Made by a program: the position numbers and the translations under genes. A DNA stretch of 64,000 bases from Terriglobia bacterium. GTDB lineage: Bacteria; Acidobacteriota; Terriglobia; JAJPHL01; JAPKYU01. Shown here one piece after another: positions 2,504 to 46,573 of this stretch. The stretch lies in contig CBDCVK010000010.1 in NCBI GenBank assembly GCA_965223005.1, positions 224,001 to 288,000 on the forward strand. Direction: 5' to 3'. The notes under the pieces were generated by a model. The model was not told where the DNA came from and did not search any database. It worked only from the letters and a program-made list of their open reading frames with translations. The first letter of the stretch is position 1; every line of letters starts with the position of its first letter.

Positions 2504-3421
2504 ATGGCCCAATCAATGAATCCAACACAACGCCAAACGATGCACCGATCCGTGGAGATCGACGGGTTGGAGATCTTCTTTCGGGAATCCGGTCCATCAG
2601 ATGCTCCAACGATTTTACTACTGCATGGCTTCCCGACCTCCTCGCACATGTTCCGCAACCTGATTCCCAGGTTGTCGGATCGCTTCCACCTCGTTGCTCC
2701 GGACTATCCCGGCTATGGGGCCAGCTCCATGCCCAGTCTCGATTCGTTCGAGTATTCGTTCGACAACCTGGCACGGGTCATCGAGAAGTTCATCGACAAG
2801 CTTAGGCTCACCAGCTACAGCCTCTATCTGATGGACTATGGTGCGCCAGTCGGTTACCGCGTCGCGGCCAGTCGTCCGGAACGCGTGCAATCCCTAATCG
2901 TCCAGAACGGCAACGCTTGCGATGAAGGCCTTCTTGACTTCTGGAACCCGATTAAGGCCTTCTGGAAAGGAAAGACAGCGGAGAACGCCCAGGTACTTCG
3001 GGACACTCTGCTGACGATCGAGGCGACGAAGTGGCAATACACCAACGGCGTTCGCAACGTCGAGACGATCGCACCTGACAATTGGTTCAACGACCAGTTC
3101 TTGCTCGACCGTCCCGGAAACAAAGACATCCAGATCGAGCTCTTCTACAGCTACGGAACGAATCCGCCGCTCTATCCCGAGTGGCAGGCCTACCTCCGTC
3201 AACACCAGCCGCCGACGCTGATCGCCTGGGGCAAGAACGACTACATCTTCCCCGCCGAAGGCGCCGAACCATACAAGCGCGATCTGGACAATGTCGACTT
3301 CCACCTGCTCGACACCGGGCATTTCGCACTGGAGGAAGACGGAGAAGTGATCGCCAACCTGATGCGCAATTTCCTCGAGAGGAATGTTGCGCGTCAAAAC
3401 GAGCGTGCCTCAGCGGCATGA
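2504..3421 (+). CDS. Alpha/beta hydrolase (epoxide hydrolase/haloalkane dehalogenase-like)
   Basis: [13 protein letters not shown] oxyanion motif, DYG nucleophile elbow, TGHFALE catalytic His; RBS AAGGAG upstream of ATG 2504. Confidence 0.9.
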
Positions 3422-43860: not shown

Positions 43861-44721
43861 CTAGTTTGGTTCATCCCCGGTCGCGACATCATGGTCCTGC
43901 TCCCCGCCGGCAGCCGAAGCAGGGGCCAGCGCAAGCTGCGCTCCCGATTTGATGAGGCCGCCTTCGCCAGGGCCCTGGAAGAAACTGAATCCGTGACGGC
44001 CATTCCAAGCGAACGGACCGCCCAGCTTCTTGCCGGCTGCTAGAGTAGCGTCGTGGATTTTGGTGACTAACGCCTTGTACCTTGGGTCGCTCCGTTCCCA
44101 TCCTGTGAAGCTGCCCAGGTCGCCGCTCGCGGCGAAGATCACGTCGACGCCCGGAACCGCGGCGATCTTATCCACGATCGCAACACCGTCTGGCGATTCA
44201 ATCATGATCACGATCATGATGTTGTCGTTGGCGGTCTCACGGTAGTCCTTTCCCCAGACCGCAGCGTACTGACCACCACCGTGGCTGCGGCGCCCCAGGG
44301 GCGGGTACTTCGCATACTTGACCGCATCCTGAGCCTCTTCGACGGTGTGAACCATGGGAACGACGATCCCCAGAGCGCCGATGTCGGTCGCTTTCTGGAT
44401 GTCGCCTTCGGTGGCGTCCGGCACGCGAATGGAAGGAATGGCCGGAGCGTCCTTACAGGCCCAGATCATCTTGGCCACGTCGTTATACGTCAGCGGGCTG
44501 TGCTGCATCTCGATCCAAAGGAAATCGAAACCGGCGTTGGCCATGGCGCAATAGATGTTCGGGTCTGACGTGGAAACGGTGCCGCCAATAACGGGCTTGC
44601 CTTCCATCAGCTTCTGCTTCGCCGTGTTGTACATTCGCACCTGCGCTCGTACAGCCGATGGAATCACCAAGGACAGCATCATGCAGACCACAGTGGATAA
44701 GAGGACTCGTCTTCTAGTCAT
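43861..44721 (-). CDS. HpcH/HpaI aldolase/citrate lyase family protein with signal peptide
   Basis: DFLWIEMQHSP, IRVP, GIVVPMV, YPPLGRRS, MIES; N-terminal MTRRRVLL...AVRA signal. Confidence 0.85.
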   Translation of the reverse strand: MTRRRVLLSTVVCMMLSLVIPSAVRAQVRMYNTAKQKLMEGKPVIGGTVSTSDPNIYCAMANAGFDFLWIEMQHSPLTYNDVAKMIWACKDAPAIPSIRVPDATEGDIQKATDIGALGIVVPMVHTVEEAQDAVKYAKYPPLGRRSHGGGQYAAVWGKDYRETANDNIMIVIMIESPDGVAIVDKIAAVPGVDVIFAASGDLGSFTGWERSDPRYKALVTKIHDATLAAGKKLGGPFAWNGRHGFSFFQGPGEGGLIKSGAQLALAPASAAGGEQDHDVATGDEPN

Positions 44722-45003
44722 GAACCTCTCCTTTGTTCGTGAGACGATGTTGTCAAACATTAGGCTTGGCTAGAACTTGGACCGTTCCAGGACACTGCGA
44801 TCCCCCCATCCTGGGTGGAGGTCCTCCAGTCGGACGTCGACCCTGCCAATATACATTTGAAACTAGTAGGGCGCTTGAACTATTCCCTGATGTTGTCGAG
44901 ACGCCATCAGGCCGGCAACTGCCTCATCCAAAAGTCGCGGATGTGATACAAGACCCTCGGTGACAGGTAGAGCAATCGACTGAGGAAGAGGAACTGGAGG
45001 CTA

Positions 45004-45967
45004 ATGCAAGAAGCCGGGCAATTCCTTCTTGAGCATGGCTACGCGGTCCTGTTCGCCCTGGTGTTCGCCGAGCAGATCGGCCTCCCCCTGCCTGCTATTC
45101 CCATCCTGCTGGCGACGGGGGCGATGGCCAGCACGGGCCATTTCTCTTTCACCCTGGCGCTGTTGGTGGCTGGTCTGGCTGCAGTGCTGGCCGACTGGAT
45201 CTGGTACCAGCTGGGCCGCCGCCGCGGCCACTCGGTCCTGAACCTGCTTTGCAGGATCTCCCTGGAGCCTGATTCCTGTGTGCGCCGCACGGAAGACGTC
45301 TTTGCCCGGCACGGCGCCCGCGCTCTGCTGTTTGCCAAGTTTGTTCCCGGCCTGAACGTTGTGGCGCCCCCGCTGGCTGGCATGCTGCGCATGCGCTTGG
45401 GGCGCTTTCTGGTATTCGACGGCCTCGGAGCGCTCTTCTGGGCGGGAGCGTTTGCTGGAGCAGGCTTTCTATTCGCCTCGCAGCTCGAGCGAGCGGCAGC
45501 CCAGGCTGCGCGGCTGGGGGCGTGGCTGCTTGTCCTGCTCCTTGCCGCGCTGGCCGGCTTCCTGGGTTGGAAGTACGCGCAGCGCCAGCGTTTTCTCCGC
45601 CAACTCCTCATCGCCCGCATCCACCCAAAAGAACTGATGGAGAAGCTGGAAGCCGGGGGGGGAGATGGTCATCGTGGACCTGCGCCACTTGATCACGTTT
45701 GAGGCGGACGGCGAAAAAGTGCCCGGCGCCCTGCACCTGCCACCCGAGCAACTGGATGCCCGCCACCAGGAGATCCCCCGGGACCGGGACGTGGTTCTCT
45801 ACTGCACGTGACCCAACGAAGCCACCAGCGCCCGGGTGGCGCTGCTGCTTCGTCGCCGGGGCATCTCACGGGTCCGTCCGCTGACCGGGGGCTTCGATGC
45901 CTGGCGCGCCGCAGGCTTTCCTCTGGAATCTGTAGCATCGCCTGGCGTTGCCAGTACAGCGCGATGA
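45004..45967 (+). CDS. DedA/VTT + rhodanese fusion, probable selenoprotein; +1 frameshift in a G8 tract as sequenced
   Basis: DedA motifs (EQIGLPLP, LFAKFVPG); after G8 at 45655-45662 the frame reads VIVDLR...PGA...VVLYCT-TGA-PNEATSARVA...RPLTGGFDAW to stop at 45965-67. Confidence 0.85.
45812..45853 (+). promoter_or_regulatory. Bacterial SECIS-like hairpin
   Basis: ACGAAGC-CAC-CAGCGCC-[CGGGT]-GGCGCTG-CT-GCTTCGT immediately after UGA 45809-11; loop begins 21 nt after the codon. Confidence 0.8.
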
Positions 45968-46033
45968 CTGACCCGGCGGATCGCACCTTGACCCTAAGTG
46001 AAAGTGCAGATAGACTTAGAAGAAGGAGATTGT

Positions 46034-46573
46034 ATGTTGAGGCGCTGCACACTGTTGCTGGTGCTGGGTTTAGTCGTGGCTGTCACGCCGCTGACGGCCC
46101 AACTCCGCATCGGTGCGCGTCACGGCGGGCATCGCTTTCACAGCAGCTTCAGAGGAGGCTTCGGTTTCGCCTCCCACCGCAGCTTTTTTGCGCCTCGCTT
46201 CTTCGGCTCCGGGCTGTACCCGTACCACTTCGGATTCGGAGGCATTTCCCCACGGTTTGCTTATGGGGTGCCGATGGCCCGGCGCCCGCAGTATCGGGTA
46301 TGGGTTTTGGGCGCGACGCACGACTGGCGGTACTGGGACCCCACCTCTGGGATCGTCGAGGGGCCGCTGGTGGACAGCTCCGCGCATCAGGCCACCGGCG
46401 AAAGCGTTCCGCAGCCCTTCCTGGACAGCCGCGTCATCGGCATGGGGATCCCGCAGTGGGCACTCGGGAACCAGGAACCGTTGGGGAATGTGGCGCGGCG
46501 CCACCGGGCGCTGGCCGAGCGGACCCGCTCCGCCAGACCTCTGCTTGCCGCGCATCGCATCGAGCGGCCCTAG
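46034..46573 (+). CDS. Secreted Gly/Phe/His-rich hypothetical protein
   Basis: RBS AAGGAG, signal peptide, low-complexity N-terminal half, C-terminal PLGNVARR. Confidence 0.6.
   Translation: MLRRCTLLLVLGLVVAVTPLTAQLRIGARHGGHRFHSSFRGGFGFASHRSFFAPRFFGSGLYPYHFGFGGISPRFAYGVPMARRPQYRVWVLGATHDWRYWDPTSGIVEGPLVDSSAHQATGESVPQPFLDSRVIGMGIPQWALGNQEPLGNVARRHRALAERTRSARPLLAAHRIERP

Follow-up and report, generated by a model that had tools for sequence, protein, structure and literature searches.

The question raised by positions 45004-45967 of the DNA analyzed here, a stretch of 64,000 nucleotides (nt) from a Terriglobia bacterium that we call the window, is whether an in-frame TGA conceals a selenoprotein gene in which a DedA membrane domain is joined to a rhodanese domain with selenocysteine (Sec) in its active-site loop. 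The original prediction, made from the sequence, was of a single hidden gene of this kind, with a hairpin of the selenocysteine insertion sequence (SECIS) type just after the TGA. Our analysis indicates that selenocysteine is almost certainly encoded by the TGA at 45809-45811 and that the pairing of DedA with a C-x-U rhodanese was correctly recognized. The single reading frame was not borne out: the two domains lie in frames 1 and 2, on either side of a run of eight G residues (G8). The locus is probably an allele, either inactivated recently or phase-off, of a Sec-containing DedA-rhodanese gene that is widespread in Acidobacteriota. Its features, each with the basis of the assignment, are as follows.

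45004-45702, + strand: open reading frame (ORF) of 232 amino acids (aa) for the DedA/VTT membrane domain, frame 1 (Pfam)
45250-45279, + strand: codons of a cysteine pair, C-x8-C (CRISLEPDSC), in one of the DedA loops (alignment of fused homologues)
45655-45662, + strand: G8 homopolymer, the +1 frameshift site between the DedA and rhodanese frames (frame comparison and relatives)
45638-45808, + strand: rhodanese part before the Sec codon, frame 2, with an internal ATG at 45665 and a conserved Cys codon, TGC, at 45803-45805 (Pfam)
45809-45811, + strand: in-frame TGA, almost certainly read as selenocysteine, the U of C-T-U-P-N-E (U/C column in relatives)
45812-45967, + strand: C-terminal part of the rhodanese, 51 codons and the stop TGA at 45965-45967 (conserved in homologues)
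45826-45844, + strand: SECIS-type hairpin, with a 7-bp stem (45826-45832 with 45838-45844) and the loop CGGGU at 45833-45837 (covariation)
45816-45853, + strand: outer stem, 45816-45822 with 45847-45853 (ACGAAGC/GCTTCGT), present here and not conserved in the family

Evidence for a selenocysteine codon

Frame 2 reads ...EMVIVDLRH...RDRDVVLYCT up to the TGA at 45809-45811 and then PNEATSARVALLLRRRGISRVRPLTGGFDAWRAAGFPLE... over 51 codons to the stop, so the TGA stands in frame within VVLYCT-U-PNEATSARVA as predicted. Pfam recognized one Rhodanese domain (PF00581) that extends across the TGA (1.4e-10; 41.9 bits against a cut-off of 22.2), covering model positions 15-101 of 102. We searched with the rhodanese piece against 61 genomes, that of the window itself and those of 60 relatives from its class, and many of the matching places lay in an open frame of 300-375 aa that contained exactly one TGA. 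Translation of 20 loci from the class relatives yielded 18 DedA-rhodanese fusions, in which the column of interest held TGA in 14 (...LYC[TA]UP[NS]E...) and TGC or TGT in the other four (...C-T-C-P-S-E). A scan of public genomes, with one genome taken per species, contributed another 37 DedA-type loci of full length (Terriglobia, Bryobacterales, Thermoanaerobaculia, Holophagales and a few other taxa); here the column held TGA in 33 (28, and 5 more with variant loops) and a Cys codon in 4. The pairing of Cys with UGA that had been proposed as a check was therefore found in both sets.

Sequence past the TGA is conserved in the way expected of protein. The coding frame was kept for 42-62 codons beyond it in the relatives, and P270, E272, A276, A279, G286, P292, L293, G295, G296 and W300 were invariant past the U in the alignment. 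Contigs from four public sequencing runs (X1, X2, X6 and X9) were aligned to 44900-46100, a region of 1201 nt. Of the 10 differences between strains listed for the rhodanese frame in these contigs, eight were synonymous, including all four that fall after the TGA, which argues for translation past the TGA in those strains. The TGA itself was kept in the contigs of all four runs, with no TGC or TGT at 45809-45811, and the only change adjoining it was 45808 G>C, a synonymous change in related strains in X9 and X6.

The hairpin was present directly 3' of the UGA at the predicted coordinates, with both stems (ACGAAGC/GCTTCGT and CAGCGCC/GGCGCTG) and with the loop starting 21 nt downstream. A gap-free alignment of the 60 nt from the TGA over 74 distinct Sec-form sequences set the two stems apart. 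Of the cells of the inner helix (columns 18-24 with 30-36), 86.9% were paired, and in four of its seven pairs both sides had changed (for example, CAGCGCC/GGCGCUG compared to GGCGGCC/GGCCGCC, and also AGUGCC/GGCACU). Its covariation score of 0.118 was reached by none of 500 shuffles (mean 0.084), and slid controls gave at most 0.083. The outer stem was paired in just 45.4% of cells, and we do not count it as part of the conserved element. The loop was CGUGY or CGGGY (CGKGY) in 65 of 75 Sec sequences. All five core pairs were present in 66 of the 75 Sec forms compared to none of 10 Cys forms, even though the peptides are similar in the two groups. The geometry is also close to that in selD of the same genome, where a 7-bp stem starts at nucleotide 17 (13 nt after the UGA) and carries a GGU loop; at our locus the stem starts at nucleotide 18 and the loop is CGGGU. 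This selD gene, at G000:C10:916629-917552 on the minus strand and outside the window, is a selenoprotein gene itself with one TGA (SG-U-ASK).

The genome (96% complete) has the machinery for selenocysteine insertion, the absence of which would have spoken against the prediction. We found a selenocysteine tRNA (tRNA-Sec; 78.5 bits, SeC(tca) by ARAGORN), selA (551 bits), selB (341 bits) and selD (357 bits). SelB and tRNA-Sec would insert selenocysteine at 45809-45811, guided by the 7-bp hairpin at 45826-45844. Among the relatives, 14 genomes have a verified Sec form, and in 12 of them selA scored above the cut-off; the two exceptions are G010, with two selA fragments at contig ends, and G006 (71% complete), in which selA was not found. 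None of the four Cys-form genomes (99-100% complete) has selA. These four all belong to one family, in which two more genomes have both selA and a TGA-bearing match, that of G042 alone being confirmed as a DedA-type Sec form. Because kin are not independent, we treat this co-occurrence as a supporting pattern and not as a statistic.

The public record of these proteins is shaped by the same codon. Among the best 120 matches to full-length forms in a large protein collection, 119 have Cys at the column, under names such as 'DedA family protein/thiosulfate sulfurtransferase GlpE'. By comparison, 118 of the best 120 entries closest to the window end in ...C[TS], just before the TGA; 92 of these best 120 are exactly 268 aa long and are named 'VTT domain-containing protein'. 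Such stubs arise because gene callers take the Sec codon for a stop. The claim that the gene is hidden from ORF calling thus applies to public annotation generally.

A frameshift between the two domains

In the intact gene, an N-terminal DedA/VTT membrane domain would be followed by a C-terminal, probably cytoplasmic, rhodanese domain with a C-x-U loop. In the window, the DedA ORF starts at the ATG at 45004, which is preceded by GGAGG, and stops at the TGA at 45700-45702; VTT_dom (PF09335) matches it at 2e-13 (51.3 bits, Pfam gathering cut-off 33.9). Frame 2 is closed upstream by a TGA at 45635-45637 and is open from 45638. The sole crossing point between the frames is the G8 run, where a +1 shift is needed; because of this shift the frame is not uninterrupted apart from the UGA. 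The junction reads ...KLEAGGG followed by DGHRG... in frame 1 and ...GEMVIVDLRH in frame 2, and the final ~14 residues of the DedA ORF, past the run, are an out-of-frame tail.

Intact relatives read GGGGAGGAG at the run (...EAGEEMVIV...). A protein from another assembly that is 98% identical (P0003) and the orthologues have ...KLEAGEEMVIVDLRH across the junction, also intact. Compared to G001, a genome of the same genus, one inserted G and one A>G change together make the G8 of the window. Expansion of the run from GGGGAGGAG to G8 would put the two domains in different frames. With this frameshift, the only product of ordinary translation would be a DedA protein of 232 aa that ends in a short stretch of nonsense residues, the Sec rhodanese part would no longer be joined to DedA, and the copy would be a recent pseudogene or an 'off' allele. 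Since everything past the G run is intact in the window, the frameshift appears to be recent.

Two other genomes of the genus carry lesions of the same gene. The G001 orthologue (L128, G001:C2:724000-730000) has an extra G near codon 21 and an insertion sequence directly after ...EEMV, with ORFs at 1087-1365 and 1218-2231 that contain HTH_Tnp_1 and rve (integrase core); the rest of its rhodanese part was not found within 5 kb (6 kb examined). In G003 (L127, G003:C2:883500-888500), just ~110 nt of the 3' end are left, at about 2051-2160 (84% identity), roughly 1.5 kb from the counterpart of the window's downstream gene. That three distinct lesions occur within a single genus suggests that selection on the gene has been relaxed in that group.

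We judge the G8 lesion very probably real, because contigs from a second study reproduce it. X1 (study P1) and X2 (study P2) each gave one contig over the 1201 nt, without a gap, and both kept G8 and the TGA; there were no other letter differences in X1 and one in X2 (word depths 11.4 and 15.7). X9 has one base fewer in the run and G>A at 45660, giving GGGGAGGAG, the intact form. X6 contains a related strain, in which a loose end carries the same intact form. In the RNA runs X18 and X19, only a small share of the sequence words was present.

One alternative, which we consider unlikely, is that the organism has an intact gene and that G8 is a sequencing or assembly error for a true G7 (EAGGEMVIV), in which case a full-length selenoprotein of ~320 aa would be encoded. 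Homopolymer runs are prone to error, the frame, TGA and hairpin past the run are all intact, and so is the junction in close relatives. The agreement of near-identical, gapless contigs from two different studies speaks against an error, as do the independent lesions in the two same-genus genomes. Runs of at least 7 bases were also not enriched for frame breaks over the assembly (12 of 277 compared to 51 of 1000 random sites), in a crude test with a 300-nt gain threshold that would not flag the G8 site itself, which falls below it.

A second alternative, which we consider quite unlikely, is that G8 is a switch, through G7/G8 slipped-strand phase variation or +1 ribosomal or transcriptional slippage, with the selenoprotein made conditionally. 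The break lies exactly within G8, a one-base change would mend the frame, and there is no further damage downstream. Reading the sequence past the run, we saw no stimulatory element or slow codon, and G/C runs of at least 8 are common in this genome (46). No heterogeneity was visible in the contigs, which cannot show heterogeneity. Because intact relatives read GGGGAGGAG, without a homopolymer there, a switch would not be a feature of the family.

It is improbable that the fusion has been split into two working genes, one for DedA (45004-45702) and one for a 100-aa rhodanese selenoprotein starting at the ATG at 45665. This ATG follows a G-rich run that might serve as a ribosome-binding site, and stand-alone C-x-U rhodaneses do exist (L043; NCBIfam NF041203). 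The GGAG, however, runs straight into the ATG without a spacer, and the product would be without the first ~36 positions of the NF041203 model (match 37-124 of 126; Pfam match 15-101 of 102), a part that corresponds to the N-terminal helix 208-216 in the model of an intact orthologue described below.

A last alternative is that translation simply ends at the TGA and that the family consists of DedA with a truncated 268-aa rhodanese stub, as publicly annotated. This agrees with the 92 of the best 120 database matches called at exactly that length, and is nevertheless highly improbable given the coding frame kept past the TGA in relatives, the Cys codons at the same column in homologues, the covarying hairpin, the uniformly synonymous strain differences past the TGA, the co-occurrence of selA with TGA forms, and a rhodanese that would end at its active-site loop without half its fold.

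Several points weigh against our preferred reading, that of a disrupted or phase-off allele of a Sec-containing gene. X1 is possibly the window's own source sample, which would make X2 the sole independent confirmation of G8, and contigs cannot reveal minority G7 reads or low-level heterogeneity. The rhodanese frame, TGA and hairpin are all intact past the shift, so decay, if any, is very recent, and there may be a functional bypass. Selenocysteine insertion is here a prediction from sequence. The fold energy of the hairpin is ordinary (z = -1.10; 24 of 200 shuffles fold as well), and its weight comes from its conservation, not from its folding energy. A scan of 45700-45960 (E up to 10) placed no Rfam family on the hairpin; two chance-level hits fell elsewhere.

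Redox residues and possible function

We examined the candidate redox residues in an alignment of 43 full-length fused DedA-rhodanese members (A2). Four Cys or Sec positions were invariant in all 43: C83 and C92, which form the C-x8-C pair in the DedA loop, and C267 and U/C269 in the rhodanese loop. The C-x8-C pair was absent from all four non-fused DedA paralogues compared (two of this genome and two of G005). The AlphaFold2 model of an intact orthologue (predicted local distance difference test score 89.4; predicted template modeling score 0.75) has an all-helical membrane domain, from which a long helix (173-201) leads through a positively charged linker to a rhodanese fold. A fold search of the PDB with this model covered the rhodanese domain only, with the DedA part uncovered among the structures listed; the best match for the rhodanese fold was 3tp9 (root-mean-square deviation 1.4 Å over 106 columns).

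We favor placing the U at the catalytic position of the rhodanese, with the Cys two residues before it, because U lies 17 residues from the conserved Gly that follows the active-site helix, the same distance as from the catalytic Cys in both 3tp9 and 6mxv. Two observations complicate this placement. In the HMMER alignment to 3tp9, which opens a gap of two residues, the first Cys falls on the catalytic Cys, while 6mxv aligned gap-free; and in the AlphaFold2 model the strand ends at Y266, so that C267 is the first loop residue and the catalytic assignment is ambiguous. In two further loci, L109 (a Dehalococcoidia metagenome-assembled genome (MAG), near 3267) and L116 (a Pirellulales MAG, near 3258), TGA occupies both positions of the loop (Y-U-T-U), and these are candidate double-Sec rhodaneses. 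If they are genuine, the U-x-U would imply that both loop positions are redox-active.

From these residues we infer the function of the Sec-containing DedA-rhodanese. In intact members, the U and the invariant Cys two residues upstream would constitute a selenenylsulfide-forming redox dyad or one for sulfur or selenium transfer, and the invariant C-x8-C in the DedA loop may be the partner to which this C-x-U dyad relays. The membrane domain itself differs from its canonical relatives. The fused family has the motif KFVPGL[ANS]..APP, without the second Arg present in a canonical paralogue (ARFVTGLRVFAGP); the acidic residues of the VTT/DedA core, E (of AEQ) and D (of GAD), are kept. Because the second basic residue, which Todor et al. 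tie to undecaprenyl-phosphate binding, is lost, the substrate of the DedA part may differ.

Gene context adds little to this picture: when flanking ORFs were clustered for 30 DedA-type loci and the window, no widely shared neighbor was found. The commonest was a YceI-like ORF upstream, at 9 of 31 loci, mostly in Bryobacterales. A role in selenite or thiosulfate handling, which the original prediction had raised, is speculation and is unsupported by gene context or by any other analysis here. DedA has reportedly been linked to selenite uptake (Ledgham 2005). In the window, the downstream ORF (45998-46573, + strand, 191 aa) encodes a hydrophobic N-terminus and Gly/Phe-rich repeats and has no Pfam match. 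The divergent upstream ORF (43861-44760, - strand, 299 aa) belongs to the HpcH/HpaI aldolase family (3.1e-23) and has a hydrophobic N-terminal segment. Neither is a conserved neighbor of the DedA-rhodanese family.

Other carriers of the module and comparison with known systems

The same C-T-U-P-[DN]-E module, with TGA and hairpin, occurs at the C-terminus of a protein of the Na+/H+-exchanger family (PF00999, 5.2e-34; L090:1735-3354). Judged by its sequence, this exchanger is a second, unrelated transporter with the Sec rhodanese module. At 26 loci the open frame upstream of the module exceeded 400 codons; L090 was the one on which Pfam was run. These long-upstream loci, which include L083, L087-L096, L099-L101, L103, L105-L108, L110, L112 and L113, come from Rubrobacteraceae, other Actinomycetota and Chloroflexota MAGs. 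A TGA-bearing rhodanese was also seen in longer open frames at G010:C43:6392-6649 (522 aa) and G048:C77:36076-36345 (575 aa). When translated, the G048 locus (L032) was a normal 313-aa fusion, and G010 showed two copies.

One possible, and at present doubtful, generalization is that the C-x-U rhodanese is a portable cytoplasmic selenol/thiol redox module carried by unrelated membrane transporters (DedA in Acidobacteriota, Na+/H+-exchanger-type proteins in Rubrobacteraceae and other Actinomycetota), which in the DedA fusion would exchange a selenenylsulfide with C-x8-C. If so, the persulfide, selenium or oxidant status of the cell would gate transport or flipping or be coupled to it; the Sec domain would be a regulatory or relay domain on transporters and not a free sulfurtransferase; and the G-tract allele in the window would be a natural off-state. 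The combination of C-x8-C with C-x-U, the Sec/Cys swap that tracks selA, and the presence of the module on a Na+/H+ exchanger together give a testable handle on the purpose of the fusion.

For annotation, the consequences are more direct. Recognizing the read-through would restore a whole catalytic domain to the public entries. The appropriate annotation for the copy in the window is a disrupted selenoprotein gene; calling it two ORFs, or a hidden selenoprotein that is intact, would be wrong.

Four known systems resemble the family described here. The UptA/DedA undecaprenyl-phosphate flippases (NF052604, NF052605 and NF008102) share its VTT/DedA core, but their models scored only 45-64 bits here compared to cut-offs of 236-300 (including 52.2 against 250 and 45.2 against 300). 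They also differ in the second Arg, which Todor et al. (PMC10127716) place at the phosphate-binding tip of these flippases and which is absent from the fused family; its equivalence with R130/R136 of YghB is presumed. TsoB (NF045694), a rhodanese/DsbD fusion-like protein, is likewise a rhodanese selenoprotein with a membrane redox domain. The match to it was marginal (17.7 bits against a cut-off of 805), and it has another partner domain and the motif UxxxxU.

DedA-rhodanese fusions have been described as a subfamily of COG0586 DedA proteins by Todor et al. in 2023 (PMC10127716), with PA1209 of P. aeruginosa as a further example (PMC12893004). In both papers the role of the fusion is called unclear and the described fusions are Cys proteins. 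They have the same architecture, PF09335 followed by PF00581, and their Cys forms read C-T-C-P-N/S-E, whereas in the family described here the second Cys is replaced by Sec and a SECIS element is present. We found no full-text literature joining DedA fusions to Sec; supplementary selenoproteome tables may list such members.

The closest likeness on the rhodanese side is to the C-x-U rhodanese selenoproteins, catalogued as 'form 3' and as NCBIfam NF041203, 'rhodanese_LYCAU'. The two share the rhodanese fold and a C-x-U after L-Y (LYCTU here, LYCAU in the model name), and reviews likewise give the motif as CxU. NF041203 was the best NCBIfam match of the rhodanese part (1.2e-21; 76.7 bits, below the cut-off of 115), for a query that was the N-terminally cut piece from the window. 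Members of NF041203 are stand-alone proteins of ~126 aa, and stand-alone members with the same hairpin were present among the relatives (L043, L081 and L082). The proteins described here are instead fused to a DedA domain of ~205 aa that has its own invariant C-x8-C. C-x-U rhodanese selenoproteins and DedA-rhodanese fusions are thus each already in print, and it is the Sec-containing fusion that appears to be unannotated. Its value is one of annotation and not that of a first-order surprise: it adds a membrane-anchored member to the C-x-U rhodanese selenoproteins.

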